Virus record (IMG/VR): IMGVR_UViG_3300028145_000042
Location: 1 to 26,563 of that record
Direction: 5' to 3' (one strand)
DNA from: a virus
Taxonomy: Duplodnaviria > Caudoviricetes
Length of the DNA stretch: 26,563 nucleotides
Shown here: positions 1-19,105 of the stretch, piece by piece
How the letters are laid out: each line of letters opens with the position of its first letter
How positions within the stretch are numbered: the stretch's first letter is position 1
Position numbers and translations under genes: made by a program
Notes under the pieces: model-generated
The model's input: the letters and a program-made list of their open reading frames with translations, nothing else
What the model was told of the DNA's origin: nothing
Databases searched by the model: none

Positions 1-1341
1 ATGCAAGCCATCATCGAAACCAATAGGGGCTGTCCGTTCCCATGTAGTTTCTGCTATTGGGGACAAGGTGGGTTAAGCAGGAAGTATCGTTTTCACGGAG
101 TGGACAGGGTAAAACTTGAGATTGAATGGGCCGCGAAGAACAAGATCAAGTATTTATTCAACGCCGACTCAAACTTCGGGATGCACAAGCGCGACGAGGA
201 AATTGCACAGATATTGATTGATACCAAAGTCAAGTATGGATTTCCTGAGAAGTTTAGAACGTGCTTTGGAAAGAACTCGGACGAACGTATCTTTCAAATA
301 GCCTCAAAACTTCACGACGCAGATATGGAGAAGGGTATAACACTAGCCATTCAAAGCAACACGCCACAAGTGCTTAAAAATATCCAGAGGCAGAATATCA
401 AGATGGAAGCGTATCGCTCTCTCCAGACCAAGTTCAATGAAAAGAACGTGCCTGTCTATACGGAACTTATTTTGGGGCTTCCCGGTGAGACTGTAGAAAC
501 GTGGAAGCAAGGAATCGAGACTCTTTTACAGGCGGGTTTGAAGAACCAGCTATTCGTTTATCTATGTCAGGTATTTCCAAACACGGAAATGTCAGAGGTT
601 GAATATCAGCGTAAGTTCGGCATCAAGACTCTGCCGATTGAACTCAATGAGATTCACGGCGCTATCCATGAATCCGGTAACACCAAGGAATACGAGCATA
701 TCATCGTGACCACGGACGCCATGACGTTGGAAGACTGGAAGCAGATGGTGCTGTTCTCATGGCTCACGATGGTTCTTCACAGTCTAAAAGTCGGCTTTTT
801 CATCATGCTGTATCTGGCTAAACGGCATGGGCGGTCTTATACAGATTTCATTAGTCACGTTCTGAAGTCTGAAAAGCGCGCTATCAAAGCAGAGATAGCT
901 GAATTCAAGTGGCAGATAGACAGAATCCTTGCTGGTCATGGCAGGGGGCGCGAGATTGAGGGTTATGCTCCTATTTATTGGGACGAGGAAGAAGCCAGTT
1001 TCTTGCGGATTTCAGAGGACAGGTTCAGGTTCTATAACGACTTGTTTGATTGCGTTCAAGAGTTTCAGCATTGTGACTTTGAAGAACTGCAGGAGGTTGT
1101 TCGCTATCAGAAATTGAGAATACCGACTTTTGGCGAAACTGAATACCGGACTTGGTTTCGATGGAACGTAGTTGAGTATTTCGACAAGATTCTTAGCGAC
1201 AACCCGATTGAATTAACTCGCGTTCGTCAGATAGCCACATTCACTTCAAAGCCATTCAAAGATAAGAACCAATTTGCAAAGGAAACTCTGATGTGGGGCA
1301 GGAAAAGCGGCACGATCATGAATGAAGTGAGCTACCAATGA
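1..1341 (+). CDS. Radical SAM protein, probably cobalamin-dependent class; 5'-truncated by window edge
   Basis: ETNRGCPFPCSFC (CxxxCxxC) near the first residue, plus ADSNFG and ELILGLPGET motifs. An N-terminal B12-binding domain would lie upstream of the window (inference). Confidence 0.85.
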   Translation: MQAIIETNRGCPFPCSFCYWGQGGLSRKYRFHGVDRVKLEIEWAAKNKIKYLFNADSNFGMHKRDEEIAQILIDTKVKYGFPEKFRTCFGKNSDERIFQIASKLHDADMEKGITLAIQSNTPQVLKNIQRQNIKMEAYRSLQTKFNEKNVPVYTELILGLPGETVETWKQGIETLLQAGLKNQLFVYLCQVFPNTEMSEVEYQRKFGIKTLPIELNEIHGAIHESGNTKEYEHIIVTTDAMTLEDWKQMVLFSWLTMVLHSLKVGFFIMLYLAKRHGRSYTDFISHVLKSEKRAIKAEIAEFKWQIDRILAGHGRGREIEGYAPIYWDEEEASFLRISEDRFRFYNDLFDCVQEFQHCDFEELQEVVRYQKLRIPTFGETEYRTWFRWNVVEYFDKILSDNPIELTRVRQIATFTSKPFKDKNQFAKETLMWGRKSGTIMNEVSYQ

Positions 1342-2285
1342 AGGGTCTTTTCATCGTCACTCGCACAAACGAGATGCACAAGCATTACGAGTCCTTTACA
1401 TGTCTTGGTAATGAAGTAAAGCTCTACACCTACGACCATAGGGCTGACCTTAACAAGTGGGCTAAGGGTGCGGCACTGGACGAGGAAGTTCTGGCGGCTG
1501 TTAAAGACTACTCCCCGGACATAATCGTTTATGTAGGAGCCTGTAAGGGCAATTCGCCTTCCCCGGCGTGTTTCAAATCTCTGCGAGACTTCGCGCCTAC
1601 CGTTCATTTCTGTTCGGATGCTGCTGATGAACCGTGGTGGGAGGAATTGATAATCTTTGATAAGGCTGGTTCGTTCAACGTGCAGGTAGCGTTGGACGGG
1701 AATAAAAACTGGCCTTTGCACAACACTCAAATAACCGCCTTGACCCCTATCGACCCGGCTTGCTTTCCGAATCCTCCAACCCCGCACGCTGACAGGTCGG
1801 TATATTTCGGCTTTGCTGGAAACGTTGGGAGTGTAAGCAAGCTCAAAGATGGCCGCGTAGTAGGCAGGAGACCTTTGGTAGCGGCTATGATGCAGTTCGG
1901 GCTTCAGGTCAGGCAGAGAGACCACGAATCCTTTAAAGACACCTACCCACAAGCGGCTAAATACATGGCTGACTGCCGCATAACCCCTAACTTTCCTGCT
2001 ACTGGTTCTTATGACCGGATGCACGTTAAGGGGAGAGTGGTTGAAACTGGTTTAGCGGGAGCGATGTTGCTGGAACAGGCCGGTTCTCCAACCCCCGATT
2101 GGTTTGAAAAAGGAGTTGATTACCTTGAATGGACGACGATGGATGAGGCAAAAGCAATAGTCGATAAATACATTCGACTACCAGATGAAACTCAAGCCTT
2201 TGGTGAGAGGTTGAGAGCCAAAGTCATGGCGAAACATAGTCCAGAAGTGTTTTGGGGAAATATCTTCCAAAGGTGCGGTCTTTGA
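1338..2285 (+). CDS. GT-B glycosyltransferase, CgeB/Glyco_trans_1_2-like
   Basis: C-terminal FAG...KGRVVETGLAGAMLLEQ...WFEKGVDYLEW...LRAKVMAKHS pattern; ATGA overlap with the upstream gene. Confidence 0.7.
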   Translation: MKGLFIVTRTNEMHKHYESFTCLGNEVKLYTYDHRADLNKWAKGAALDEEVLAAVKDYSPDIIVYVGACKGNSPSPACFKSLRDFAPTVHFCSDAADEPWWEELIIFDKAGSFNVQVALDGNKNWPLHNTQITALTPIDPACFPNPPTPHADRSVYFGFAGNVGSVSKLKDGRVVGRRPLVAAMMQFGLQVRQRDHESFKDTYPQAAKYMADCRITPNFPATGSYDRMHVKGRVVETGLAGAMLLEQAGSPTPDWFEKGVDYLEWTTMDEAKAIVDKYIRLPDETQAFGERLRAKVMAKHSPEVFWGNIFQRCGL

Positions 2286-3247
2286 AAGCATTGTTCGTTA
2301 CGACTGAGACCAACGAGGTTCCGAAGTATGCTCAGTCCTTTGAGTCTGTTAATGGGAATGAGGCAGACAGGTTCGTTTTCACGCACAGAAGGAAACAGGC
2401 GCAAACGCAAGAAATGCTGGATAACGATGTTATCCTAGCGGCGAAAGAATCAATGCCGCAAGTAATCGTTTATCTAGGGGCGTGCGCTGGTTACATCCCG
2501 TCCCCCGAAGTCTTCGCTAAACTGAAATCCGAGATAGCGCCTACGGTTTTGATGTGTTCGGATGCCGGGGACGCGAATAACTCGCCTTGGGGCGCTTTGC
2601 TGAAGGTCTATGACCAAGCAGACTCTTTCAATGTCGTTGTAGCAATCGACGGACGAAAAGATTGGGAGTTTTCTGACAGACACATTACCGAATTGACCCC
2701 TATTGATTACAAACTGTTCAGAAACCCGCCGACCCCGCATAAAGACAGGGAAATGAAGTTCGGGTTTGCAGGGAACATCGGTAGCCATAGGGTTACTAGA
2801 TTCGGCAAGCATCATCCGACCCCGCGCCGGTTCTGGTTGGAGCACATGGCTAATAACTGCGGGCTGCTATGCAGGAACAGGAGTGACACCTACGCCAGCG
2901 ATGCTGACGAAACCTATAAGCAATGCGTAGACTTCCTTTGCGACTCACGGATAACCCCGAATTTCTGCGAGACAGGTTCGCATGAAATGACCCACGTTAA
3001 GGGGCGTGTAATAGAGGTCGGGCTAGCCGGAGGGTGTTTACTTGAACAGAAGGGGTCTCCAACTTGCAATTGGTTTGAGAGTGGGGTAGATTATTTGGAG
3101 TGGGAATTTATACAGGACGTTGAACAGATTTTAGAGCGTCTTGACGACCCGGAAGAATCTCAACAGTTTGGGACGAGGCTACGTGAAAAGGTATTGGCTA
3201 ACCACACGCCAGAGAAATTCTGGTCTCGCGTAATGGCGAGATTGTGA
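2282..3247 (+). CDS. GT-B glycosyltransferase, tandem paralog of 1338..2285
   Basis: Colinear similarity to the previous ORF (FGFAGNIGS, RITPNF, HVKGRVIEVGLAG, WFESGVDYLEW). Start moved to TTG 2282 because of the TTGA overlap and because it aligns with the paralog N-terminus. Confidence 0.7.
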   Translation: MKALFVTTETNEVPKYAQSFESVNGNEADRFVFTHRRKQAQTQEMLDNDVILAAKESMPQVIVYLGACAGYIPSPEVFAKLKSEIAPTVLMCSDAGDANNSPWGALLKVYDQADSFNVVVAIDGRKDWEFSDRHITELTPIDYKLFRNPPTPHKDREMKFGFAGNIGSHRVTRFGKHHPTPRRFWLEHMANNCGLLCRNRSDTYASDADETYKQCVDFLCDSRITPNFCETGSHEMTHVKGRVIEVGLAGGCLLEQKGSPTCNWFESGVDYLEWEFIQDVEQILERLDDPEESQQFGTRLREKVLANHTPEKFWSRVMARL

Positions 3248-3852
3248 TATTCCTTCAGTCCAGAAAGCGCCGCCAGAGCCTTGAGCGGTTCTTTTCCTTC
3301 TCCAAACCTACTGAACGCGGTTGCGTCTTAATTGACGACGACGACGACTCCTACGAAGGCATGTCTTTACCTGCCGGATGGGGTTTTCACCAAGCGCCTA
3401 GAGCCAGCGTTGTAATCATCCTGAACCGGGCCTTCCAAGCCTATCCCAATGAACCGTACTACGCGCAAATAGGCGACGATTACGTTTGCCAGCCGGAAGG
3501 ATGGGACAAAGTACTCGGGGACGCTTGCGGGAGCCACAATATCGCATGGGGGGACGATGGGCGGTTCGGGCCGAAGCTATGTACCTCCTTTTTCGTTGGC
3601 GGCGATCTGGTGCGTAAATTGGGCTTTATAGCGCACCCTTCTTTCGGCCATCTGTACGTCGATACCGTCTGGTGGTCGATAGCTAAAGGTGCTGGTATAG
3701 GGCGCTACCATCCTGAAATATCAACCAAGCACTTGAAGCTGATTGATAAGACCTATCACGAACGGACTGTTCAGGGTGATTACGAGACATTCAACAAGTT
3801 AAGGGAGAAGGAATTGAGCGAACTTATCAACATAGCGGTGAGCCTGAAATGA
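3244..3852 (+). CDS. GT-A (GT2-like) phage glycosyltransferase
   Basis: IDDDD, IGDDY (DxD-like), GWD, GDDG and HLYVD motifs typical of small phage GT2-like proteins; GTGA overlap. Confidence 0.6.
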   Translation: MIFLQSRKRRQSLERFFSFSKPTERGCVLIDDDDDSYEGMSLPAGWGFHQAPRASVVIILNRAFQAYPNEPYYAQIGDDYVCQPEGWDKVLGDACGSHNIAWGDDGRFGPKLCTSFFVGGDLVRKLGFIAHPSFGHLYVDTVWWSIAKGAGIGRYHPEISTKHLKLIDKTYHERTVQGDYETFNKLREKELSELINIAVSLK

Positions 3853-4253
3853 GGAAGTACCTTCCGACTCTAGCCGACCTGATAGACCGCATGAGTATCT
3901 GCCAGCTAAAGGAGATATTCATTCCAGACCAACGCCAAGCCTACAAGGATGAAATATCACTTATCAAGCATGACATTGACCTGATTTTGTCGGAGCGCAG
4001 GTTAAACGCGACTCAGGTTCATGCAATCATGGTCATCATGCTGACGAATCGCTACATATGGGAGAACGAATCCAAGGCTCGGCAAGGCGGTTCGGAACAG
4101 GACAAGCTCTTAAAACTGACGCATAGCATTAACGGAGTCAGGAACACGGCCAAGAATGTGTTGAGCCATGAAAGCGACGAGCGCGTTGACCTGAAGATAG
4201 ACTGTTTCTCCGCTGAGTTAATCGAAGAATTTGGGCATTGGGACATATTTTGA
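3849..4253 (+). CDS. Small helical protein of sugar-biosynthesis clusters (DUF6165-like)
   Basis: LADLIDRMSICQLK...N..IWENE...NGVRN pattern; translationally coupled at both ends. Confidence 0.5.
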   Translation: MRKYLPTLADLIDRMSICQLKEIFIPDQRQAYKDEISLIKHDIDLILSERRLNATQVHAIMVIMLTNRYIWENESKARQGGSEQDKLLKLTHSINGVRNTAKNVLSHESDERVDLKIDCFSAELIEEFGHWDIF

Positions 4254-5218
4254 GGGTTCTAGTTACCGGCGCGACTGGCATGGTGGGGAGTCACCTGATT
4301 GACTACCTGCTCGCCAATACGGATTGGGAAATCTATGGCCTGATTCGCTGGCGCTCGCCATTAGACAATCTTGAGCATATCCTGAACAAGATTAAGTTTG
4401 TCTATGGCGATATTCGGGACGACGTTGCATTGAGAAATGCAATTACTCTCGCTAGACCTGATTATGTTTTTCACTTGGCTGCTCAGTCCTATCCAAAAAC
4501 GTCGTTCGATTCACCTTGCGACACGCTGGATACTAATATTCAAGGGACTGTCCGATTACTTGAGGCGCTTCGAGGACATTTCTGCACCATTCACGTTTGT
4601 TCATCTTCGGAAGTCTATGGGCGCACCAAGATAACGCCAATCACCGAAGGCCACGCTTTCCATCCTGCAAGCCCGTATGCAATAAGCAAGGTCGGAGCCG
4701 ACCTGATAGCTCGGCATTACGCTGAAGCCTATGGCATGAACATAATGACTACGCGCATGTTCACACACACAGGCCCGCGCCGTGGGGATGTATTCATGGA
4801 GTCCACATTTGCCAAGCAAATAGCGATGGCAGAATCTGGACAAATACCGCCAGTGATTAAGGTTGGGAATCTTGAGTCCGTGAGAACGATAGCCGATGTT
4901 CGGGACGCCGTTAGAGCGTATTACATGCTGCTGACAGTCAATCCGCAACGCGGAGAGGTTTACAATATCGGCGGGAATTACACCTGTAAGGTTGACAATA
5001 TCCTTGCGACTTTGCTTGCCTTATCTTCAACCCGAATGGAGGTTGAAGTAGACCAAGAAAGGTTACGTCCGATAGACGCCGATAACCAAGTTCCAGACTG
5101 CTCAAAATTCATGAATCATACCGGATGGAAGCCAGAGATACCGTTTGAAAAGACCATGATTGACTTGCTCAACTACTGGAGGGAACGTGTCAAAAAACAC
5201 GCTCATCTGACGCGATGA
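4250..5218 (+). CDS. gmd: GDP-mannose 4,6-dehydratase family SDR
   Basis: TGATGMVGSHL Rossmann motif, HLAAQS, SSSEVYG, SPYAISK (YxxxK), FTHTGPRRG, GNL..VR. TTG start inferred from TTGA overlap. Confidence 0.8.
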   Translation: MRVLVTGATGMVGSHLIDYLLANTDWEIYGLIRWRSPLDNLEHILNKIKFVYGDIRDDVALRNAITLARPDYVFHLAAQSYPKTSFDSPCDTLDTNIQGTVRLLEALRGHFCTIHVCSSSEVYGRTKITPITEGHAFHPASPYAISKVGADLIARHYAEAYGMNIMTTRMFTHTGPRRGDVFMESTFAKQIAMAESGQIPPVIKVGNLESVRTIADVRDAVRAYYMLLTVNPQRGEVYNIGGNYTCKVDNILATLLALSSTRMEVEVDQERLRPIDADNQVPDCSKFMNHTGWKPEIPFEKTMIDLLNYWRERVKKHAHLTR

Positions 5219-6324
5219 AATATCCGCTAGTAAATCAGTCTTGGGGGCCAGAGGAACGCGAGGCCATTTTAGAGGTTGTTGATTCTGGACGCTTGACTAT
5301 GGGGAGCAAGGTCAAAGATTTTGAGGCCGAGTTCGCCAAATATGTAGGCTCCAAGCACGCGATCATGGTCAACTCAGGGTCTTCGGCTAATTTGGTTGCT
5401 GCTGCCGCTTTCCGTTATCACCCGAAAGCGCCTATCCGCGATGGCGACGAAGCGATAGTTCCCGCAATCGGCTGGTCAACGACCTATAGCCCGTTCCAGA
5501 ATCTTAAACTCAAAGTGATTGACGTAGAGCTAGACACGCTGAATATGAATGTCAGTGAGTTAGGTTCTGCGATGCGTGTAAACACCAAACTAATAGTAGG
5601 AGTAAGCGTACTTGGAAACCCCGCACGACTGGACAAAATGCGCGAGTTCGCAGACGAACACGGTATATGGTTTCTTGAAGACAACTGCGAGAGCATGGGG
5701 GCTACGCTTAACGGAAAGCAATGCGGGACGTTCGGAGACATTGGGACATACTCAATGTTCTTCAGTCACCACCTGAACACTACTGAAGGCGGCATGATCG
5801 TTACGGACAACGATATTCTATACGAGTTATGCCTGATGCTTCGGGAGCATGGTTGGGACAGGTGCATTAAACCGGACGGTGGCTTCTATAACTTCGTCGT
5901 TCCGGGTTTCAATGTCAGACCGACAGAAATAGCCGGTGCTGTTGGCTTGGTTCAACTGAAGAAACTGGATAAAGACTTGGAGGTTCGACGGGCTAATGCA
6001 AAAGTATTCAGGACTGCATTTGGTGGCGACGAGAGATTCATAACACAGCGCGAGCATGGGAATAGCTCTTGGTTCTCGTTCACTATGATTTCTCGCAAAG
6101 ACAGAAACCCGTTTATCCGCAAGATGGACGATGCGGGGGTTGAGTGCAGGAGTATTTGCGGGGGTTGTTTTGCAGAACATCCGGTTGCAGACAAATACAA
6201 CTGGTCGGTAAGTGGGGCATTGAAAAACGCCAATGCAGCGCATCATGACGGATGGTTTGTTGGAAACTGCGGGCGCGATCTGACAGCGGAAATCAATCAT
6301 CTGAAGGACGCGCTATGGACGTAA
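5215..6324 (+). CDS. colD: GDP-4-keto-6-deoxy-D-mannose 3-dehydratase (DegT/StrS fold, ColD type)
   Basis: NSGSSANL, WSTTY, LGNP, LEDNCESMGA, FSHHLNTTEGG (His at the usual PLP-Lys position), PGFNVRP and SSWF closely match ColD/WbdK as recalled. Confidence 0.8.
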   Translation: MKYPLVNQSWGPEEREAILEVVDSGRLTMGSKVKDFEAEFAKYVGSKHAIMVNSGSSANLVAAAAFRYHPKAPIRDGDEAIVPAIGWSTTYSPFQNLKLKVIDVELDTLNMNVSELGSAMRVNTKLIVGVSVLGNPARLDKMREFADEHGIWFLEDNCESMGATLNGKQCGTFGDIGTYSMFFSHHLNTTEGGMIVTDNDILYELCLMLREHGWDRCIKPDGGFYNFVVPGFNVRPTEIAGAVGLVQLKKLDKDLEVRRANAKVFRTAFGGDERFITQREHGNSSWFSFTMISRKDRNPFIRKMDDAGVECRSICGGCFAEHPVADKYNWSVSGALKNANAAHHDGWFVGNCGRDLTAEINHLKDALWT

Positions 6325-7745
6325 TGTTTGTCAGTCCAGACTCTAGCCGCGAGGTCTATCAGTCGTTGGCTGACGATTACGCCGCTATAGAGCCGCCCGT
6401 TTGGTGCTTACTGCTGGCTGGCGCTTTAAGGCCCGAATACGAGGTAGGAATCCTTGACCCCCGCGCAGAAAGATTGGACGACCACGGCGCATGGCTTCGG
6501 ATTGCAAGGCATAGGCCGAAACTGATTTGCTTTGTAGTCTACGGGCAGAATCCGAACTCAGGCACTACCAACATGGCTGGCGCTGAGAGGCTTGCCAAAT
6601 ACATAAGGTTGATTGACGCCTTCACTCCCATAGCTTTCATTGGCCCTCACGCTTCGGCTTTACCAGAAGAATTACTGAAGTCCGAATACGTCAATTACGT
6701 TCTACCCGGCGATGGACTGGACGGGCTACGTCAGATTCTCAAAGAACCTGAAACCGGCGTGGTGCAGAAAAAGATTGTCTGGTCTGGTAAATCGGATTTC
6801 AAAGACTACGCTTGGGACTTGATACCGTCACTAGACCATTACCGCTGCCATGTGTGGCATTGCAATTTTGACGAATCCAAGCGTTCGCCGTTTGCTGCGA
6901 TTTACACTTCGTTGGGATGCCCGTTCAAGTGCGATTTCTGCATGATAAACATGGTCAACCGGGAAAGCCCGGAACAGTTAGACGCCGCCCAAGCATCCGG
7001 TATTCGTTATTTCGATCATGATTTCATATTGGGAGAACTCGAATACCTGTATAGCAAGGGCGTAAGGAACGTGCGTATTCAAGATGAAATGTTCTTCCTA
7101 AACAAAAATCATTATGTTCCATTGCTACTAGGAATAATAGATAGATGTATCCCGCTTAACCTATGGGCTTATGCTCGAGTGGATACAGTGAGGAAAGATT
7201 ATCTTGGTCTATTCAAGGCCGCTGGAGTAAATTGGTTATGCCTTGGTATTGAGTCTTCAAACCAGATTATACGGCGCGAGATTTCCAAAGGGTCTTTCGA
7301 GGAAGTGGACGTAAGGCAGGTTTGCAAGGAAATTCAGGACGCCGGTATCAACGTGCTGGCTAACTTTATCTTCGGATTGCCTGATGATGATATGGCGTCA
7401 ATGCAAGCAACTTTAGACTTGGCAAAGGAACTCAATGCGGAACATACGAACTTTTACCCCTGCATGGCGCTTCCCGGCACTCCGCTATATCGTCAGGCGG
7501 TTGCTAATGGTACTGCTCTGCCGGATAAATTCTCCGGTTACAGCTTTCATTCTGAGGATTGCCTGCCCCTACCGACCAAGCATTGCACAGCCGCAGAAGT
7601 GTTGGCCTTCAGGGATAAGGCATGGGAAGAAGTTTCACTTAACCCTAATTACCTGAAAATGATTGATGAGCGGTTCGGAACGGCATCGCGTATTCAGGAA
7701 CAAGCCAAGACTAAACTGAGAAGAAAAATACTGGAGAAAGCATGA
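6315..7745 (+). CDS. B12-binding domain radical SAM protein
   Basis: N-terminal PPVW..LLA...GPHASALP region, TSLGCPFKCDFC, DEMF, YARVD, LGIES and FIFGLPDD motifs. Start ATG 6315 follows GAAGGA. Confidence 0.85.
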   Translation: MDVMFVSPDSSREVYQSLADDYAAIEPPVWCLLLAGALRPEYEVGILDPRAERLDDHGAWLRIARHRPKLICFVVYGQNPNSGTTNMAGAERLAKYIRLIDAFTPIAFIGPHASALPEELLKSEYVNYVLPGDGLDGLRQILKEPETGVVQKKIVWSGKSDFKDYAWDLIPSLDHYRCHVWHCNFDESKRSPFAAIYTSLGCPFKCDFCMINMVNRESPEQLDAAQASGIRYFDHDFILGELEYLYSKGVRNVRIQDEMFFLNKNHYVPLLLGIIDRCIPLNLWAYARVDTVRKDYLGLFKAAGVNWLCLGIESSNQIIRREISKGSFEEVDVRQVCKEIQDAGINVLANFIFGLPDDDMASMQATLDLAKELNAEHTNFYPCMALPGTPLYRQAVANGTALPDKFSGYSFHSEDCLPLPTKHCTAAEVLAFRDKAWEEVSLNPNYLKMIDERFGTASRIQEQAKTKLRRKILEKA

Positions 7746-7969
7746 AAGACCTCCCGCTGCCCCCATGCTTACAAAAGGATATAACGGATGCTGTAATGGC
7801 AAACGTTGCAGATACGGAGCCTCATTTTACCTACAGCCACTTGTGGCCGTTCACTTTAACTACTTCCACTACTAAATATGGCTCAAAAACATTCACTCTA
7901 GAATTTAGAATAATGAGGAAGTTTTCATTCCACATAGGATTTTTTTGGAAAAGCGAAAATGCTACCTGA
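7742..7969 (+). CDS. Hypothetical protein (75 aa)
   Basis: Fills the gap exactly and overlaps both neighbours; no recognisable motif. Confidence 0.5.
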   Translation: MKDLPLPPCLQKDITDAVMANVADTEPHFTYSHLWPFTLTTSTTKYGSKTFTLEFRIMRKFSFHIGFFWKSENAT

Positions 7970-8561
7970 AACTCTCAGAGAACGCTGCGTAGCCTTACTC
8001 ACGCAAGCCGATGACGGGCATCCCGGCTCAGTCATGTCATTGGTGGACTTCGTTGCCGATCTTGGCATCAAGGAGCGGCTGGTAATCAGCGAAGGCCATG
8101 CGGCTATGGTCGTTTACCCGTTGCTGCACGAAGCCGGTATTTTAACCGACGAAGACATATCCAATTTCCGCAAAGTCGGAGGTAGACTTACGATGTTCCC
8201 GCACAAGGGGATACCCGGAATCCTCTGCGGATGCGGCTCACTCGGTAACGGTATTGGCTACGCCTGTGGGCTGGCTATGGCTGACCCCTCACCGATTACC
8301 TGCATCATCAGCGAGGGCGAGTTATACGAGGGGGCTACTTGGGAAGCCCTGATGTTCGCTCGCCACTACAAGCTGAAAAATCTTCGCATCGTCATTAACA
8401 AGAATGACGCGATTATCATGGGCAAGCCTGAAGATTGCCTGTCTATCCCTTGGGACGCTTTAGAGCCTTTTGACTGCGAGGTTATCCAGACCGTCAAAGG
8501 TAAGGGCGTCCCGGCTTGGGAAGGCAAAGCCAGCAGTCATTATTGGAGCCGAATTTCATGA
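7959..8561 (+). CDS. Transketolase-like protein, N-terminal (TPP-binding) subunit
   Basis: GHPGSVMS, ISEGH, GSLGNG, SEGELYEG...WEA...N (GDG-x-N variant) and TVKGKG motifs. Confidence 0.85.
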   Translation: MLPETLRERCVALLTQADDGHPGSVMSLVDFVADLGIKERLVISEGHAAMVVYPLLHEAGILTDEDISNFRKVGGRLTMFPHKGIPGILCGCGSLGNGIGYACGLAMADPSPITCIISEGELYEGATWEALMFARHYKLKNLRIVINKNDAIIMGKPEDCLSIPWDALEPFDCEVIQTVKGKGVPAWEGKASSHYWSRIS

Positions 8562-9406
8562 CTCAACAGCGCGAAGCCTTCATAGAAGTTCTGTTCGAGG
8601 CGGCGAAGAAAGACCCTCGAATCATTTTCCTGTCGGCTGACTTTGGTTCTCCGAGTCTGGACGTATGGCGTAAAGAGTTACCGGCTCAGTTTGTGCATTG
8701 CGGCATCAGCGAGCAGAACATGATTAACGTCGCTGTCGGGCTGGCTTTGGCTGGCAAACGCCCGTTCGTGTTCGCCATGTCGCCATTCTTCCTGCGGGCC
8801 TACGAGCAACTGAAAATGGCTGCGATGCACCAAGTCCCCATTACGGTCATTTCCGTGGGCGCAGGGCTGTCCTATGCCGGTTCTGGCCCTACTCACTACG
8901 CCACTGAGGATATCGCCTGCTACCGGACTTTGGTGGGGGCGCAGCTTTACACCTGTTCGACCGTCAATCAGGCGAAACTGGTCGCCAAAGCCTCCTTGGT
9001 CACTCATGGGATGCTTATTGCAAGACTGGAGCGCGGGGAACTCCCTGAACTCTACCCGGAAATGGACGTTATCCACGGCTATGTCGCATTGCAGCAAACC
9101 AATGATGCTGCGCCAGCTATTGCTTGCGGCTACCTAGTCCATTGGCTGAAAAACAAGGGCTGGAACGTCATTGACCTTTACCGGATTAAGCCGATTTCGC
9201 CTCAATTAACGGCATTTTTGGGCCAATTTCCATATGTGCATACCTTTGAGGAACAGTATGCTGCTGGCGGCATGGGGGCTGCGGTGATGGAGGCCTTAGC
9301 TGACGCCGGTAAAAAGACCCTAGTAATCCGTAAAACGCTCCCTGACCGCCCGATCTACGAGAACGGGACTAGGGATGAACTCCTGAAGGCTGCATGGTCA
9401 CTATAG
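8558..9406 (+). CDS. Transketolase-like protein, C-terminal (pyrimidine-binding) subunit
   Basis: LSAD, GISEQNM, RAYEQ, GPTHYATED and EEQ...GGMG motifs; ATG 8558 overlaps the upstream TGA. Confidence 0.85.
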   Translation: MTQQREAFIEVLFEAAKKDPRIIFLSADFGSPSLDVWRKELPAQFVHCGISEQNMINVAVGLALAGKRPFVFAMSPFFLRAYEQLKMAAMHQVPITVISVGAGLSYAGSGPTHYATEDIACYRTLVGAQLYTCSTVNQAKLVAKASLVTHGMLIARLERGELPELYPEMDVIHGYVALQQTNDAAPAIACGYLVHWLKNKGWNVIDLYRIKPISPQLTAFLGQFPYVHTFEEQYAAGGMGAAVMEALADAGKKTLVIRKTLPDRPIYENGTRDELLKAAWSL

Positions 9407-10062
9407 CCTGCGTATTGCGTTCTGGAGGGGGTTACGACTGCTCTTGGGCTGAGAAAATCAAGGCTATGGCGGCGAGGAACCTGACCATACCCCATAAATT
9501 CGCCTGTCTCTCTGACCTGAAAGACGCTCCAGACCGCATACCGCTTCCCCATAATTGGGTAGGGTGGTGGGCAAAATTGGCCTTATTTGCTCCTGACTTG
9601 ATTGAACCGCCCTATCTTTACTTCGACCTTGACACCGTGATTTGCGGCAATTTCGACAAATTGACTCAGATTCCGGTCGATTTCGGCATGTGCCGCAACT
9701 TCAATAACCCTGAAATGGTCAATTCCAGCGTGATGCTGTTCAACAAAGTGCCGACTCAGGTCTATGAGAAGTTCGCCAAGCAGCCTGACGCCTATATTCA
9801 CCACTACAACCGCATCGCAAACGAGACCTATGTAGGCGATCAGGCGTTCATTTGGGACGCCCTGCACCGTAAGGTTGACTTGCTAACAGATTCGTTTAAG
9901 GGTATATATTCGTACAAGCGGCACTGTACGCGCCGTTTACCATTGGACACGGCGATCGTGTGCTTTCACGGCCATCCAAAACCCTTGCACGTTTCAGACG
10001 AGTGGGTTAAGGAGCACTGGCATGACGATAAGCACGTATGCAAAAAAACGGTCAGCAGCTAA
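9394..10062 (+). CDS. GT-A glycosyltransferase (GT8-like phage family)
   Basis: GWWAKLALF, YFDLDTVI (DxD), NSSVM, GDQ and VCFHGHPKP motifs. Confidence 0.75.
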   Translation: MVTIACVLRSGGGYDCSWAEKIKAMAARNLTIPHKFACLSDLKDAPDRIPLPHNWVGWWAKLALFAPDLIEPPYLYFDLDTVICGNFDKLTQIPVDFGMCRNFNNPEMVNSSVMLFNKVPTQVYEKFAKQPDAYIHHYNRIANETYVGDQAFIWDALHRKVDLLTDSFKGIYSYKRHCTRRLPLDTAIVCFHGHPKPLHVSDEWVKEHWHDDKHVCKKTVSS

Positions 10063-10612
10063 ATCTCTAGGGGCCAAAAGATATTTTACTGGAAAGCCGT
10101 GCAAACAGGGGCATATATCTACTAGATTTACATGTTCAGGGACATGTTGTGAGTGCCTATTTATCCGCTCAAATACCCCGGAAGCCAAGATACAAAAATA
10201 TAAAATAGCTTCTCTGAGGATTAAAAATAATAAAGAAAAATATAACAAGAAAGCTAGAGACTGGAGAAATAAAAATCCAGATAAAGTGCGCGCTATATTG
10301 CAAAGATACCGGGCATCTGAAAATGGCAAACAAGTATATCGAGGATGCAGTCGTTCCTATGCAATAAAGTTCCCTCAGCGTAGAGCGGCTAATGAAAATG
10401 CGCGCAGGGCTATAAAAATTAACGCCATGCCCGCATGGGCAGACAAAGAAAAAATATCAGAATTCTATAAAAATAGACCCCATGGATATCATGTAGATCA
10501 TGTAATCCCTTTAGTAAATTCTAAGGTATGCGGACTTCATGTTATTGAAAATCTTCAATACCTGAAGCCTGTAGATAACTTTAGAAAACACAATAAATTT
10601 GAGATTTCCTAA
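10022..10612 (+). CDS. HNH homing endonuclease
   Basis: N-terminal YFTGKPCKQGH...C..C zinc motif; C-terminal HVDHVIPL...CGLHV..NLQ...N..KHN. Visibly AT-richer than its flanks. Confidence 0.85.
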   Translation: MTISTYAKKRSAAKSLGAKRYFTGKPCKQGHISTRFTCSGTCCECLFIRSNTPEAKIQKYKIASLRIKNNKEKYNKKARDWRNKNPDKVRAILQRYRASENGKQVYRGCSRSYAIKFPQRRAANENARRAIKINAMPAWADKEKISEFYKNRPHGYHVDHVIPLVNSKVCGLHVIENLQYLKPVDNFRKHNKFEIS

Positions 10613-11226
10613 TGGCTATTACAACTTATAGCCAATTGGAGACCGCGGTATCTAGCTGGCTAGATATTAATTCTGGAGACATATCGAGCCAAATAGCCGA
10701 TATTGTAATGCTCGCGGAACAGCGGATTCTGCGGGAAGCCAGAACCAAAGATAACGAAGCTACCCTTGCGCTGACCATCGGCGCGACTGGTGTTGCAGCG
10801 CTCCCCGCTGACTATGTAGCCCTAAAGTTCTGCTATATCACGACCAGCCCTTCATATGCGCTGGAAAGGCGTTCGGCTGAATGGATTTACTCCGAGTACC
10901 CTGCTCGGACATCTTCAGGGATGCCAAAGTTTATAGCAAGGGAAGGCTCTAACTTCATCTTTGGCCCCTACCCGGACTCTGGCTATTCGATAGCGGGCGT
11001 TTATTACAAGACGCTCGGCCCGCTGTCCAGCGCGGTCTATAACTTGTTCACCAACAATCCTGACCTCTATCTATTCGGCTGTTTGGCTGAAGCTGAGTTA
11101 ATCATCGGGCGCGACCCGCGTGTAGCGATATGGGAGTCGAAGTACCAAAGGATTCTGTCGGACGTAAATGGCTTCTCCAAGGCTGAAGATAACTCCGGTA
11201 GCACTTTGAGGATGCGCCTTGGATGA
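10612..11226 (+). CDS. Podovirus head-tail adaptor protein
   Basis: MAITTYSQL..AV..WL, AEQRI.R, P.PDS.Y and PDLYL.G.L.EA patterns; located before the nozzle gene. Confidence 0.7.
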   Translation: MAITTYSQLETAVSSWLDINSGDISSQIADIVMLAEQRILREARTKDNEATLALTIGATGVAALPADYVALKFCYITTSPSYALERRSAEWIYSEYPARTSSGMPKFIAREGSNFIFGPYPDSGYSIAGVYYKTLGPLSSAVYNLFTNNPDLYLFGCLAEAELIIGRDPRVAIWESKYQRILSDVNGFSKAEDNSGSTLRMRLG

Positions 11227-11789
11227 GCCTATTCCGGCTTGACCTAGTAAACACCATTGGAGCGCGTGATACCTCTACAGACCGCGACGAGAAAATAGTC
11301 AATGGGTATGCTGAGATTGATTCTCAACGACACGCTGTTAAACGTCCCGCGATGGTTGGGGCATATACAGCTATTCCCGGCCATAGCTCGGCTAGTTTCA
11401 TGGGGCAAGGTCTATTTAGTTGGGGTTCTGCAACGGCTTTATCATCCGCATCTTCTGGTAACTCAGGCGGCTTCGTTGCTATCCGTGGCGATACGTTGGA
11501 TACCAGCCCTTCCAAGCGCCGTTCTTATTGCCTGTTCACGGTTCAACCCTCAAGCACTGGCCCCGGCTTGGCTATGTCGCCACCCCCTGTCGTTAAAGTT
11601 TACGACGCAATGGGGAACGTCTTAACCAACTACAGCGGCAACGTGACCATCACTCTAGGCCCAAGCAATCCGAATAACGGTCTGTTATCAGGAACGACCA
11701 CGGTAGCCGCATCTTCAGGTGTTGCGACATTCAGCAACCTGATTATTGACCGGATTGGTTCCTACACTTTCATAGCGACTGCCGCATGA
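11223..11789 (+). CDS. Virion protein: N-terminal segment of a gp10-like nozzle fused to an Ig-like domain
   Basis: RDTSTDRDEKIVNGYAE...KRP resembles the start of packaged-DNA stabilization proteins. From 11532, LFTVQP...VYDAMGN...GVATFSNL.ID..G.YT is an Ig-like motif. Confidence 0.55.
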   Translation: MSLFRLDLVNTIGARDTSTDRDEKIVNGYAEIDSQRHAVKRPAMVGAYTAIPGHSSASFMGQGLFSWGSATALSSASSGNSGGFVAIRGDTLDTSPSKRRSYCLFTVQPSSTGPGLAMSPPPVVKVYDAMGNVLTNYSGNVTITLGPSNPNNGLLSGTTTVAASSGVATFSNLIIDRIGSYTFIATAA

Positions 11790-12448
11790 GTATCAGCAAG
11801 AAAAGCAATTCTTTCTCATGTGAGGCGTTCTTGGCTTTCACCAGTCAACCCGCTGGTGGCCCGATAAACACGCCATTTAGCGCGGTAGTTACTGTGCAGG
11901 ATACGCATGGCGCAACCATCACGGGTTATACCGGGAACGTAACAATATCGAAGGCTTCCGGCACAGGCACCTTATCAGGAACATTGACGGTTGCTGCCGT
12001 TGCTGGCGTTGCAACATTTAGCAATCTGTCAATTGACACGGCTGGATTCTTCACTCTTTCAGCCGCTTCTACAGACCCGACAACTTCAACTGTTTTAACA
12101 GCAGTTACCAGCAGTTCATTTGCGGTGGGGCTATGGACTTTAACAGCGGATTCTATATCCGGTGGTGATATATTTGGGATGAATTTTGCGTTAGGGTCTA
12201 TTTCTCCGACGACCTACAGCGGAAGCACAATCCAATTACTCGCCAATCAAGTTTCTACATCTAAGCTATGGATTCAAATTCAGGGTGTCCATGCACAAAG
12301 TTTCTTTACCTCTATAACCGTGAACGGAACCACCCTGACTTCCGCAAGCGCCACTACATTCACTAATGGCACAAATAGTTATTGGGAATGGACAGGACAG
12401 GCTGGCGTAATCCCATCTATAGGCTCTTACACAGTAGCGTTCGCATGA
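11786..12448 (+). CDS. Virion protein with an Ig-like domain and beta-rich C-terminal domain
   Basis: LAFTSQP...VQD..G...GVATFSNLSIDTAG; Ser/Thr/Gly-rich; ATGA overlaps at both ends. Confidence 0.6.
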   Translation: MSISKKSNSFSCEAFLAFTSQPAGGPINTPFSAVVTVQDTHGATITGYTGNVTISKASGTGTLSGTLTVAAVAGVATFSNLSIDTAGFFTLSAASTDPTTSTVLTAVTSSSFAVGLWTLTADSISGGDIFGMNFALGSISPTTYSGSTIQLLANQVSTSKLWIQIQGVHAQSFFTSITVNGTTLTSASATTFTNGTNSYWEWTGQAGVIPSIGSYTVAFA

Positions 12449-13818
12449 CCACATACTCAATAAGCACGCCTCCCGGTGGGCTTCGCTATCAAGCGAAGCA
12501 AGAGCTTAACGGCGGAGCTTTGTTCGTCAAGAACTCAAGCATCGCTTATCGCCTTACCTCCAGTGGATTCACTCAAATAACCGATGTTGATTACCCCAAG
12601 TCAACCGTATGGGGAGTGGTTTACCTAGACGGATATATGTTCGTTCAGGAGTCCTCCAGCGGCAGGATTTATAACTCCGACTCCCTTGATTCAACGTCGT
12701 GGGGCGCGTTGAATTACATCGTCCCTGAGAAAGAGCCTAGCTTGGCAGTAGCGATAGCCAAGTCGCTTAATTACTTGGTCGCGTTTAAGTCATGGGACAC
12801 GGAGTTTTACTATGACGCTGGTAACGCCGCTCCCGGCTCGCCACTTTCTACCGTGGACAGTTCGTACCTGAAACTCGGATGTGCTTCTGCTGACAGCATA
12901 ATTGAGTTTGATGGTGGAATTGTGTTTATGTCCAAGCGGGACAATAATCAGAGAAGCCGCGAGATTCATGTTCTCAATGGACTGACTCCGAAGAAAATCA
13001 GCACACCGGAAATAGAGAGGCTGATTAACGGCGACGACCTTTCGACGCTCTACGCTCTTTATCTCAGCACGGCGGGGCATCAGTTCTACGTCTTGACTCT
13101 AAAGACTCTTGGCATAACCATCGTCTATGACTTTAACAACGGCGAATGGTATCAATGGACGATGCTTACGGCTGCAACTGCTCAGTCTGTTAGTGCAAGC
13201 AATCTGACTAGCTCCAGTGGCATAGCAACTTGCACTATTACCGCGCACGGATTCTCCGATGGAGATACGGTAACTGTCGCAGGAGCAAATCAGTCTCAAT
13301 ATAACGGCGACCAAGTAGTAACTATTTCTGACGCAAACACATTCACCTATCCGATAGACGATACGCCTGTCAGTCCAGCTACAGGAACGATTACCGCGAC
13401 AGGATATACGGAGAGTTATTTCGCTTTCGTGTCATATGCTCAGTTCGCTAATGTTGACTTGGTTCAGCATGAGACTAACGGCATTATCTACGCTCTTGCG
13501 CCTTCGCTATTCAAGGATGATGGGACACCAATTCAATTCGTTCTGCATACTCAGAATTGGGACAACGGGAATAACTATCGAAAGACTGTAAACTCAGTTC
13601 GGCTTGTTGGCGACAAAGTAACCGGGACTGGATATATTCGTTATTCCGATGACGACTCACTGACAAACTCATCCTACAGACCGATTGACTTGAGCGTTCA
13701 ATCAGCGGCTATGTGGCGAATGGGGCAGACTCGGCGTAGGAATTACGATGTTAAATACATAGACGATACGGCAGTTCGTTTTGAAGCAATAGAGCAATTC
13801 TTTACACAGGATCAATAA
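12445..13818 (+). CDS. Packaged DNA stabilization / tail nozzle protein (P22 gp10-like), main body
   Basis: YLDGY, TEFYYDAG, GCAS..S, KISTPEIER, GHQFYVLT, YD....W and YSDD...R.G..RRR motifs. Start moved to ATG 12445 (ATGA overlap). Confidence 0.7.
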   Translation: MTTYSISTPPGGLRYQAKQELNGGALFVKNSSIAYRLTSSGFTQITDVDYPKSTVWGVVYLDGYMFVQESSSGRIYNSDSLDSTSWGALNYIVPEKEPSLAVAIAKSLNYLVAFKSWDTEFYYDAGNAAPGSPLSTVDSSYLKLGCASADSIIEFDGGIVFMSKRDNNQRSREIHVLNGLTPKKISTPEIERLINGDDLSTLYALYLSTAGHQFYVLTLKTLGITIVYDFNNGEWYQWTMLTAATAQSVSASNLTSSSGIATCTITAHGFSDGDTVTVAGANQSQYNGDQVVTISDANTFTYPIDDTPVSPATGTITATGYTESYFAFVSYAQFANVDLVQHETNGIIYALAPSLFKDDGTPIQFVLHTQNWDNGNNYRKTVNSVRLVGDKVTGTGYIRYSDDDSLTNSSYRPIDLSVQSAAMWRMGQTRRRNYDVKYIDDTAVRFEAIEQFFTQDQ

Positions 13819-13820
13819 TC

Positions 13821-14666
13821 ATGGCTGACTATACTTTTGGATACGGCGGCTCACCCGGAGACTACCTTTATGGTGGGAATGACCAACTAGCCAACCTCTC
13901 CCGACAGCAAGCAAGCCAGTCTCTTGGATATGGCGATGTTGCCGCAGGGTATGCAGACCCCGTTCGCGCACAGCGAGGTCAGTATCAGGAAATGCTGAAA
14001 AATCTCCTGACTAATCCTAATGGCGCTTTGTCCAATGACCCTACTCTGAAATTCCTCCAGAACCAAGGGGCGGCAGCAGTAAATGCTCGCAACGCTGCTA
14101 CCGGAAATCTTCTAAGCGGCGGTGGGCAAGTGGCCTTACAGGACAGGGCGCAGGGAATAGCTGCTTCCTACATTCCTCAGTTAGCCGGTCTCTACGGGCA
14201 GTTCGGTGGATTCAACACAAGTAATCCCGGTGCTGCTGGAAGGTCTTACGCTGAATTTGCTGCGCGCTCGCAAAATCAGAATCAACAAGCGTTAGCACAA
14301 CGTAATGCTCCTACTGGTGGAACTGGATTGCCAAGCGGAGGAGGCGCAGGATCCTTCGGCGGTGGTTCTTCGCCAGCATATAGCCCGCCTGTCAGTAGCC
14401 CAAGCGGAACTTCATCTAATTTCGTTCCTTATACCGGAACCAATGGCACTGGTTATTTCAATTCCGATGGACAATATGTGCCTAGCGGCCAATATGATTC
14501 TGGTAACGGATATATCCAGCGAACTGACGGTGATACACAAAGTTCAGGATGGGGCAATATCTCAAGCGGGGACGCTGGTAACTATCTAGGAAATCAGTCA
14601 TATCAAAATTATGATACGCCAGATTACGGTGGTAATTATGATTTTGGTTATGGAGATTGGGGTTAA
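13821..14666 (+). CDS. DNA ejection/transfer protein (P22 gp7-like)
   Basis: DP..F...QG..AV.A.NAATGNLLSG....ALQ..AQG.A motif; Gly/Gln-rich; position in the tail module. Confidence 0.55.
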   Translation: MADYTFGYGGSPGDYLYGGNDQLANLSRQQASQSLGYGDVAAGYADPVRAQRGQYQEMLKNLLTNPNGALSNDPTLKFLQNQGAAAVNARNAATGNLLSGGGQVALQDRAQGIAASYIPQLAGLYGQFGGFNTSNPGAAGRSYAEFAARSQNQNQQALAQRNAPTGGTGLPSGGGAGSFGGGSSPAYSPPVSSPSGTSSNFVPYTGTNGTGYFNSDGQYVPSGQYDSGNGYIQRTDGDTQSSGWGNISSGDAGNYLGNQSYQNYDTPDYGGNYDFGYGDWG

Positions 14667-14668
14667 TT

Positions 14669-15682
14669 ATGGCTATCGACACTCCATTAGACGGTTACGC
14701 TCTACTCCAACAATACCGGGCGCAAGAGCTTGCCGATGCTGCAAGGCGTCAGGCGATGGGTATTCAGGCCAATCAAGAGGGAAGGGCGGGAGCTTTGTTC
14801 CCTCTCCAGATGCAACATGGTGGCTTGCAGAATCAGGGATTGGCTAATCAGAATGCTCTATTCCCCCTGCAATCGCAGAAAGCCAATCTGGATATTCAGA
14901 AGGAATTGGAAGGATTAAGACGTGCCCAACAACAAAGGGGCGCTCTATCTGCGCTGACTAATCAGGGTGGTATGCCTGACCCCGGAAAAGTAGCGCAAGT
15001 GTTATTGGCTGGTGGAGATACCACTGGTGCTGCTCATTTCCTTAATCTTGCAAGACAATCCGGTTCGACTGTTCCTGCTGGCTATCGAAAGACTGCTACG
15101 GGACTCGAACCTATTCCGGGTGGCCCCGCTGATACCAAGATTCAGGGGCAATTGAATCAGGATACCGCCATGCTTGGCGAGAGTATGAACAGTATGGATA
15201 GACTCGCTGCTGAAGCGAACAGGCTTAAAGAGCATCCGGGGCTTGATAAAGCAACCGGGCTTATGAGTGCAGTTCCTTTGGCTGGCGGCTTTTTAACTGT
15301 GCCCGGAACGGACGCGGCTAACTTCAAGTCTGGATTGGGAACGCTTAAATCTCAGGTTGCATTCGGAACCTTGCAGAACATGCGTAACAACTCCAAGACC
15401 GGAGGCGCGTTAGGTCAGGTATCTAACATTGAAGAAAAGATGTTGATGGATAACCTCGCATCTCTGGACACAGCGCAATCTCCAGAGGAATACCGGAAAC
15501 GGCTGGATACAATAATCAACTATACGAGCGAAGCAAAAGATAGGCTGCGGGGCGCTTACAACATCAAGCATGGCAGCAAGGGGCAATCTTCAACTTCTGA
15601 AAAATACGAAGTAGGCAAGACATACACCGATGCCCAAGGCAACAAGGCGACCTATCTTGGCATGGGTAAGTGGAAGCAATAA
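14669..15682 (+). CDS. DNA ejection/internal virion protein (gp20-like)
   Basis: Q/A/G-rich helical protein with PAGYR....LEPIPGGPAD and GGALGQVS..E motifs; position. Confidence 0.5.
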   Translation: MAIDTPLDGYALLQQYRAQELADAARRQAMGIQANQEGRAGALFPLQMQHGGLQNQGLANQNALFPLQSQKANLDIQKELEGLRRAQQQRGALSALTNQGGMPDPGKVAQVLLAGGDTTGAAHFLNLARQSGSTVPAGYRKTATGLEPIPGGPADTKIQGQLNQDTAMLGESMNSMDRLAAEANRLKEHPGLDKATGLMSAVPLAGGFLTVPGTDAANFKSGLGTLKSQVAFGTLQNMRNNSKTGGALGQVSNIEEKMLMDNLASLDTAQSPEEYRKRLDTIINYTSEAKDRLRGAYNIKHGSKGQSSTSEKYEVGKTYTDAQGNKATYLGMGKWKQ

Positions 15683-18908: not shown

Positions 18909-19105
18909 ACAATAAGCAAGCGGTCAAGTCAGCAACGACATTAAACACGGCAGGATATACTGTGGCGACTTTACCTGCTGGAGTTCAAGGTGCTTGCGCC
19001 TATTGCACAGATTTGCTGCTCCCCGCTTTCCTTGCCGTGGCCGTAGGAGGTGGGGCTGTAGTTGGGAAAGTTTTTTACGATGGGACAAATTGGGTGACTG
19101 ATTAG
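18896..19105 (+). CDS. C-terminal domain of the tail fibre in the -1 frame (no own start)
   Basis: Reads GIRVNNKQAVKSATTLNTAGYTVATLPAGVQGACAYCTDLLLPAFLAVAVGGGAVVGKVFYDGTNWVTD*. YTVATLP...GGG...YDGTNW is a common fibre C-terminus, and the stop overlaps the next gene's RBS (TAGGAG). Confidence 0.7.
   Translation, partial: GIRVNNKQAVKSATTLNTAGYTVATLPAGVQGACAYCTDLLLPAFLAVAVGGGAVVGKVFYDGTNWVTD

Follow-up and report, generated by a model that had tools for sequence, protein, structure and literature searches.

Twelve plus-strand genes occupy positions 1-10062 of a 26,563-nucleotide stretch of tailed-phage DNA (Duplodnaviria, Caudoviricetes; IMG/VR record IMGVR_UViG_3300028145_000042, positions 1 to 26,563; the whole stretch is 'the window' throughout), where they form a predicted sugar-synthesis and glycosylation cassette that is followed by an HNH gene, a head-tail adaptor gene, two genes for Ser/Thr-rich proteins and a nozzle gene (Table 1). 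Scans with Pfam, PHROG and curated profiles assign the twelve to two radical SAM proteins (rSAM1 and rSAM2), four glycosyltransferases (GTs: two of family PF13524, here GT A and GT B; one of phrog_14945, GT C; and one GT8-like, phrog_1962), a short-chain dehydrogenase/reductase (SDR) dehydratase, a pyridoxal phosphate (PLP) enzyme, the N- and C-terminal halves of a split transketolase, and open reading frames (ORFs) of 134 and 75 amino acids. Adjacent genes overlap by 1-41 nt at each junction from gene 1 through the nozzle gene (taking 2282, from the ORF list, as the start of GT B); there is no gap for a promoter or terminator between the cassette and the adaptor and nozzle genes, and scans for such signals gave fewer sites in the window than in shuffles. 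A preliminary description made from the sequence alone had seen twelve coupled genes ahead of virion genes, as the overlaps and family scans bear out; its run from HNH gene to adaptor to nozzle holds as an order, with the correction that the two Ser/Thr-rich genes separate adaptor and nozzle.

Genes for ejection proteins, a tail fibre, a holin-like protein, an endolysin and an Rz-like spanin lie 3' of the nozzle gene, and the lysis genes are followed by a converging early region that includes an Erf recombinase gene. The phage is taken to be short-tailed (a podovirus) because its adaptor is of the SU10 type, and a Gram-negative host, as first suggested, is likely from the Rz-like spanin. Gene 1 (rSAM1) is cut at its 5' end by the contig start: the alignment begins at residue 193 of a 653-aa homologue (68% identity), such that ~192 N-terminal residues are absent from the contig, and the cluster may therefore be longer. 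Family scans of the visible cassette, whose 5' part lies outside the contig, found no flippase, polymerase, ABC exporter or membrane GT, and the top 19-residue hydropathy among the GTs is 1.33, below transmembrane level; both results agree with the preliminary description. The cassette is, we conclude, a phage-owned part of the virion operon, and a large allele of a widespread, unexplained phage cassette. We further propose, with a probability of roughly 60%, that the sugar made is a 3,6-dideoxy heptose branched at C4 and that the phage attaches it to its own virion.

That a host polysaccharide locus was fused to phage DNA by misassembly, the case that was earlier named as one that would overturn this reading, is very unlikely, and hardly credible as an account of the locus. 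The contig does begin inside the cluster, and the sole sequencing run with the cluster, labelled soil metagenome, may itself be the source, there being no independent sample. Against this, one contig of a separate assembly (possibly of the same reads) covers 1-12436 at even depth and with no joint, ending one base beyond the window's start, and a recorded contig of 45,623 bases, probably a longer assembly of the same phage, encodes rSAM2 and GT B with identical sequences. Avoidance of palindromes is common to the cluster and the structural genes, GT8-like homologues abut the adaptor in relatives, and rSAM2 groups with phage copies (see below).

Table 1. Predicted genes of the cassette and of the adjoining virion genes.
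Predicted product	Positions	Strand	Supporting match or property
rSAM1, KedN5-like B12-dependent radical SAM, C-terminal 446 aa	1..1341	+	NF033712 1e-55, below cut-off
GT A, GT-B-type (PF13524), phage-centred family	1338..2285	+	Pfam 2e-10
GT B, paralogue (PF13524)	2282 (TTG) or 2273 (GTG)..3247	+	Pfam 3e-11
GT C, small GT-A-type glycosyltransferase, GDD motif	3244..3852	+	phrog_14945 6e-19
134-aa protein, DUF4254/DUF6165-like	3849..4253	+	weak Pfam DUF4254; atlas viral clusters 0.94
GDP-heptose-type 4,6-dehydratase (SDR)	4238..5218	+	7US5 4e-96
ColD-type PLP C3-dehydratase, His replacing Schiff-base Lys	5215..6324	+	2GMS 2e-94, full length
rSAM2, class-B-like radical SAM	6315..7745	+	Radical_SAM 3e-14; B12-binding 31 bits vs cut-off 32.1
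75-aa AT-rich ORF	7742..7969	+	no family match; GC 0.40
Split transketolase-type thiamine diphosphate (ThDP) enzyme, shortened N-terminal half	7959..8561	+	6YAK 8e-27
Split transketolase-type enzyme, C-terminal half	8558..9406	+	Transket_pyr 2e-28; 6YAJ 7e-25
GT8-like GT-A glycosyltransferase, DLD motif	9394..10062	+	phrog_1962 4e-38
Free-standing HNH endonuclease, AT-rich passenger	10022..10612	+	phrog_1035 3e-15; GC 0.37
SU10-type head-tail adaptor, right border of slot	10612..11226	+	PF24175 7e-26
Two Ser/Thr-rich proteins, common repeat domain	11223..12448	+	23% and 32% Ser+Thr
Nozzle / head-closure protein	12445..13818	+	phrog_578 3e-33

A predicted branched-heptose pathway

The SDR had been labelled Gmd in the preliminary description, and this label does not survive comparison: the match to 7US5, GDP-D-glycero-D-manno-heptose 4,6-dehydratase, scores 325 bits, as against 146 bits (1.5e-41) for the best GDP-mannose dehydratase, and the score with TIGR01472 (Gmd) is 161 bits, where the cut-off is 415. 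Catalytic motifs are common to the window enzyme and 7US5, and 55-69% homologues adjoin GHMP heptose-kinase genes in phage loci. The PLP enzyme was correctly identified as ColD-type, since 2GMS aligns over the full length and the catalytic His is present (FSHH aligned to YSHH; the Schiff-base-position His of ColD is H188); an RfbH-type match reaches only 5e-46, over residues 11-216. Judged by these family assignments, the sugar is probably heptose-based rather than mannose- or colitose-based. Colitose as the product was considered and rejected, with no ColC-type reductase in view and a dehydratase of the heptose type.

Heptose enzymes also surround rSAM2 elsewhere. Among 80 bacterial rSAM2 loci, 72 hold a C3-dehydratase, 68 a heptose-type GHMP kinase, 65 a ThDP enzyme and 56 a C4-dehydrogenase-like SDR, whose family member in the lambda-like siphovirus L166 matches 6VO6 (the heptose C4-dehydrogenase Cj1427) at 1e-103. 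The role of this C4-dehydrogenase is described in PMC10680097. No locus of 198 has both the C4-dehydrogenase-like SDR (98 loci) and the heptose-type 4,6-dehydratase (16), with a Fisher p of 0.004 over the 18 long GT A loci with rSAM2, these being related loci and so non-independent; this fits two alternative routes to one 4-keto-heptose. On its predicted function, rSAM2 is the core of a widespread heptose-tailoring module.

Taking these assignments together, we propose a route in which the 4,6-dehydratase would convert GDP-heptose to a 4-keto-6-deoxy-heptose and the ColD-type enzyme would remove the 3-hydroxyl, both dehydrations having been shown on GDP-heptose to yield GDP-3,6-dideoxy-4-keto-heptose (PMC10440746). 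Because no C4-reductase is in view, and by comparison with YerE and ErwE, which carry out ThDP-dependent branching of 4-keto-3,6-dideoxy-hexoses (PMC9306805), the split ThDP enzyme most likely adds a two-carbon unit onto the ketone at C4; its N-terminal half carries two deletions common to its 69% homologue in L161, with His residues and the ThDP-motif region kept. The branched sugar would then be reworked by rSAM2 through ring closure or methylation, and rSAM1 would add a C-methyl group. The best named matches of rSAM2 are HpnJ and AprD4, which rearrange sugars (PMC9092360), and rSAM1 is a predicted C-methyltransferase, the nearest such enzyme being KedN5. A CxxxCxxC core is present in both radical enzymes; the B12-binding domain of rSAM2 scores just under its cut-off, and that of rSAM1 falls beyond the contig start but is present in its 68% homologue, a full-length protein from the HK97-like locus L329. 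Both enzymes would depend on host cobalamin. No heptose kinase is visible in the window, and GDP-heptose (by kinase and nucleotidyltransferase) would be supplied by genes beyond the contig start or by the host. The gene set, its coupling, the family assignments and the recurrence in virion operons are seen directly, whereas substrate, product, timing, acceptor and each step past family assignment are what we infer from sequence.

The first two steps would be those of the Campylobacter jejuni HS:5/HS:11 GDP-3,6-dideoxy-heptose pathway, where a heptose 4,6-dehydratase likewise precedes a PLP C3-dehydratase; the Campylobacter pathway is completed by an epimerase and a C4-reductase, whereas the visible cassette is without both and has the ThDP pair and two radical SAM enzymes instead (PMC10440746, PMC10680097). 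Yersiniose (YerE/YerF), erwiniose (ErwE) and caryophyllose systems likewise set a ThDP enzyme beside 4-keto-3,6-dideoxy sugar enzymes, and in these acyl-branched systems the acceptors are CDP-hexoses, the donors keto acids and the reductase of the YerF type (PMC9306805). The window enzyme differs from YerE and ErwE in its split transketolase fold, which is not of the acetolactate-synthase type, and in its predicted GDP-heptose-type acceptor; no YerF-type reductase is in view, the visible cluster holding one SDR only.

The cassette in related and unrelated phages

An alignment search with the adaptor returned 160 locus rows; ORF calling placed the adaptor in 149 loci and the window and missed it in 10, and the window's own record was then excluded. 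In this family the genes run terminase, portal (PF23899), scaffold, SU10 capsid (PF17236), a small gene, a tetratricopeptide-repeat (TPR) protein, a variable cassette and the adaptor, so that the position between capsid and adaptor expected from the preliminary description is the one found in relatives by viral contig search. GT or sugar genes precede the adaptor in 18/18 loci (16 distinct) whose adaptor has an identity of 50% or more and for which 2.5 kb or more of upstream sequence is available. The GT8-like family is the commonest cassette GT, with 46-56% homologues 5' of the adaptor in 16 other loci, and a scan of 105 representatives found in the slot GT2, GT9 and PF13524 families, methyltransferases, DegT-type PLP enzymes, dehydratases, heptose enzymes (SIS and cytidylyltransferase-like), PfkB kinases, split ThDP enzymes and radical SAM proteins.

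No Pfam GT family matches the TPR protein, and its C-terminus resembles the GT9-like family of the cassette (hhalign 7e-6, probability 84). It is found in the slot with 22 of 39 distinct adaptor-linked capsids, the other 17 having no cassette gene at all. Capsids of the TPR-GT clade have a longer, less acidic and Ser/Thr-richer loop (Ser+Thr 10.9 vs 7.6; 21 vs 17 sequences, one partial sequence having been dropped), a difference that is not independent support for a virion acceptor because the label changes once on the tree.

The TPR-GT capsid loop usually holds a TTP motif (L005, L086, L098 and 18 others), and the cassette-free loop is shorter and acidic. In the cassette-free relatives L071 and L150 an O-antigen-ligase-like (Wzy_C) gene sits between capsid and adaptor (6549-7904). 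A sugar set (cytidylyltransferase, Gmd, ColD-like) lies between portal and scaffold, not after the capsid, in L065 and L066, and single genes occupy that portal-scaffold slot too in L086, L089 and L104.

The cassette is not confined to phages with this adaptor. Searches of viral contigs with single proteins were nearly empty, and it was alignment queries that retrieved the loci. Among GenBank phages, GT A, rSAM2 and the transketolase have no close relative. There are 41 further rSAM2 homologues of 468-505 residues (56-82% identity), all on contigs of at most 42 kb; the next group has longer proteins, at ~50%, with bacterial ones included, and in a quick tree the window rSAM2 falls in the small-phage clade, apart from bacterial copies. 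The L166 cassette, which fills the gap between a head-tail attachment gene and the tail terminator, comprises a GT8-like gene, ColD, a nucleotidyltransferase, an SDR, a GHMP kinase, rSAM2, a small ThDP alpha/beta pair, rSAM1, three GT A homologues, a dehydratase-like gene and GT C, with identities to the window of 66% (rSAM1), 59% (rSAM2) and 49% (ColD). In L161, rSAM2 (71%) and the transketolase halves (69 and 67%) stand directly 3' of a P22-type portal, and homologous cassettes occur in HK97-like L329 and L333 and in T7-like tail-tube and contractile-tail loci. In L166 the rSAM1 homologue (12543-15590) is interrupted by an intein exactly at the radical SAM core.

GT A has 83 homologues, and 79 of the 80 with a listed size are on contigs of at most 51 kb; a profile search found no solved relative. 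Its alignment retrieved 38 viral loci, including four near-duplicate pairs, which were sorted by hand. Virion operons account for 29/38: 14 T7-like tail-tube or capsid, six contractile-tail neck, three HK97-like and two lambda-like loci, and four after a terminase-like gene. Near GT A (37 loci, L330 being excluded as the L166 contig) are found a C3-dehydratase in 23, rSAM2 in 22, a ThDP enzyme in 21, GT C, which follows GT A homologues in many loci, in 18, and a GHMP kinase in 14. GT B is a 46% identical paralogue of GT A and matches atlas PF13524 clusters at 0.97; the 134-aa protein travels with heptose enzymes, its 45-64% homologues adjoining dehydratase genes. This recurrence in five unrelated morphogenesis modules is our main argument for a virion acceptor.

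Candidate acceptors of the proposed glycan, and neighbouring genes

We suggest that the four soluble GTs would build a glycan on proteins of the phage particle during assembly. That the phage has its own rare nucleotide-diphosphate sugar and several GTs in a virion operon, as the preliminary description held, is supported; its virion acceptor rests on gene position and on the weakening of rivals. Several observations weigh on the other side. The virion glycan is predicted here from genes, and the capsid and TPR genes of the window phage fall outside the contig. The main argument against a virion acceptor is that four of the 38 loci of the GT A family are found with early recombination genes; of the others, two close a virion operon, one runs antisense within a structural region and two could not be placed. 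Distant GT8-like homologues include pmgQ of P1, a gene preceding the phiNP terminase and genes in moron positions of the coliphages Chlobot and Chuche, and the same sugar module is found in bacterial surface clusters with ABC exporters (L292, L369). In the P1 locus (L324, pmgO-pmgQ), the GT8-like homologue pmgQ is a late 'putative morphogenetic' gene near a sialyltransferase-like gene, and the same pair precedes the terminase in phiNP (L321).

These early and moron positions, together with bacterial rSAM2 modules in O-antigen-type clusters with Wzm/Wzt, would suit a cassette that remodels the host surface (lipopolysaccharide (LPS) core, O-antigen or a surface protein) with a sugar made by the phage and by way of host export, whether to exclude superinfection or to mask receptors. 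LPS GTs are soluble enzymes that work without a phage flippase, and the lack of a flippase or membrane GT is compatible with action on host LPS. The large cyanophage and pelagimyophage LPS-gene islands, which likewise bring phage-borne sugar-synthesis and GT genes, have been proposed to act in this way; those islands are hypervariable, sit in 140-250 kb genomes and are uncoupled from capsid and adaptor genes (PMC7029224, PMC12801897). T4-like loci carry the same module of rSAM2, transketolase and C3-dehydratase (L231). We consider remodelling of the host surface a serious but unlikely alternative: translational coupling to the adaptor and nozzle genes, with no promoter or terminator gap, would place expression late, not long before lysis, the slot is found again within head and neck operons of unrelated phages, and the window rSAM2 stands apart from bacterial copies.

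A different view would keep the virion slot only for its high late expression, with the product being a free or lipid-linked glycoconjugate, or with a host protein or defence factor as the target. Cassette content is indeed highly variable (methyltransferases, acetyltransferases, kinases), and several of the GT families, GT A among them, are without a characterised member; but in the phage loci examined the cassette is not accompanied by any gene for a lipid, a carrier or export, and the fixing of a TPR-GT fusion 3' of the capsid gene suggests a protein acceptor. We regard such products as quite unlikely.

The GTs might also hypermodify the phage DNA with a complex sugar, blocking restriction. 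Phage GT-A and GT-B enzymes are able to add heptose and other sugars to DNA, where base-hydroxymethylation genes accompany the DNA GTs (10.1101/2023.12.21.572611); the GT C family matches the N-terminal part of phrog_2675, annotated as a DNA methyltransferase, and half of the genome lies outside the window. Family scans of the window, however, found no C5-methyltransferase, TET/5mYOX or thymidylate-synthase-type hydroxymethylase. Across 15 related records, only two of them at least 90% complete, a thymidylate-synthase homologue was found in none, a C5 methylase in one and TET in none (the control of the TET search being silent). Six-base palindromes number 214 in the window vs 687 expected (0.31) and 72 in the cluster vs 264 (0.27), where random word sets never fell below 0.86, and the ratio is 0.48 in cassette-bearing relatives (n=22) vs 0.59 in cassette-free ones (n=15), such that avoidance is no weaker with the cassette. 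Since a shielded genome should relax palindrome avoidance, this counts against DNA modification, although avoidance can be inherited; we see in it a slender prospect.

A virion acceptor has precedent. Virion glycosylation has been shown for mycobacteriophages (as cited in PMC12363180, PMC12619734, PMC12691614), of which Che8 (gp108-110), Corndog (gp35-38) and Myrna (PMC12363180) likewise have several small soluble GTs, those of Corndog lying inside the head operon. Telling against a direct parallel, phmmer and family profiles gave no match better than E 0.04 between the window GTs and those of Che8 gp108-110 or Corndog gp35-38, weak matches being confined to GT2-like families of window relatives; no sugar-synthesis genes are annotated in the Che8 and Corndog regions, whereas the window, from a podovirus of a likely Gram-negative host, has a predicted five-enzyme pathway. 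Because its GTs are not detectably homologous, the window system would work like those of mycobacteriophages without being a member. Virion glycans are also established in Megavirinae, whose fibril clusters similarly join nucleotide-sugar synthesis to GTs, vary between clades and serve rare bacterial-type sugars to the particle surface; these are giant eukaryotic viruses with amino sugars, as compared with ~10 kb of a ~45 kb phage and predicted heptose/ThDP/B12 radical chemistry here (PMC10117803). Searches of the openly licensed literature turned up no account of such cassettes in small-phage head operons or of this enzyme set.

Closer to hand, the two Ser/Thr-rich proteins (47% over 88 aa to each other) have no family match and are missing from nearly all relatives, with one partial match in L090; they are likely virion (decoration) proteins and, by composition and position, candidate glycan acceptors. 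The 75-aa ORF has no homologue in the retrieved loci and is absent between the same two genes in L161; it is probably an insertion and may be non-functional. The tail-fibre gene (window 17484-19100) stops at 18908, while a fibre-like frame runs on to ~19100 and a separate assembly has an extra base at 18899, a likely assembly slip in the window. On the minus strand at 25686-25859, beside an 85-aa early-region gene of no known family, a short ORF of Ser-Gly-Ser-Arg/Trp repeats forms a low-complexity, probably hypervariable tract.

A possible carbocyclic product and its significance

The nature of the final sugar invites further speculation. The skeleton of caryose, a 4,8-cyclo-3,9-dideoxy-nonose, is what a 3-deoxy-4-keto-heptose, a C2 branch and one radical C-C bond would be expected to give; the biosynthesis of caryose is called unknown in PMC9092360, where radical SAM ring formation is cited for calditol and the BHT cyclitol ether. 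The ThDP enzyme could extend a 3-deoxy-4-keto-heptose at C4 by a C2 unit, after which rSAM2 could close a bond from C7 to the branch; a C4-acetyl-branched 3-deoxy-heptose would give the caryose skeleton if C7 bonds the branch carbonyl. This link to caryose is one that we infer by retro-biosynthesis. The bacterial module (e.g. L369) has a kinase, a C4-dehydrogenase-like SDR, a C3-dehydratase, a ThDP pair and rSAM2, the enzymes that the caryose skeleton would need.

Bradyrhizose is a 6-deoxy, C-methyl sugar, and in the carbocyclic scheme rSAM1 would be the C-methylase that a sugar of this type requires. In one large bacterial genus, 5/301 genomes have the heptose-type 4,6-dehydratase; three of the four loci examined carry alongside it a split transketolase, an RmlC-type epimerase and an rSAM1 homologue (the one read over its whole length also has reductases and an ABC exporter gene), and the fourth has an alpha/beta ThDP pair instead. 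The three (L375, L376 and L378; G506, G537 and G476) form a conserved cluster of heptose-type 4,6-dehydratase, split transketolase, B12 radical SAM and RmlC genes, two of them with a 30-residue heptose-kinase remnant 3' of the dehydratase. Such clusters resemble, by its description, the eleven-gene 'gdh' cluster proposed for bradyrhizose (PMC4743980). A role for rSAM2 itself as a bradyrhizose enzyme was dropped, with a close copy in 2/251 genomes of the large genus and the rSAM1 homologue in its place in the three dehydratase clusters. The window holds both radical enzymes, and its product would be 6-deoxy and identical to neither caryose nor bradyrhizose.

Extended to the family, the proposal would be that a cassette for bicyclic (carbocyclic) higher sugars is exchanged among small phages with five or more unrelated virion designs, which coat their particles with the product, the window's being a new 3,6-dideoxy, methylated member; we offer this tentatively and think it, as a whole, rather unlikely, a plain branched and methylated sugar being at least as likely as a carbocycle.

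If glycosylation of the virion is borne out, glycan-coated particles would be a common, swappable trait of small environmental phages, beyond the mycobacteriophages and giant viruses, and some small phages would devote about one-fifth of their genome to a rare sugar of their own, with a bearing on how particles survive grazers, adsorb to hosts and are recognised by antibodies. The compact, all-soluble gene set would also provide an in vitro system for a widespread and uncharacterised ThDP and B12 radical SAM heptose pathway, and the way in which caryose (PMC9092360) and other carbocyclic sugars are made could be tested directly with the cassette.

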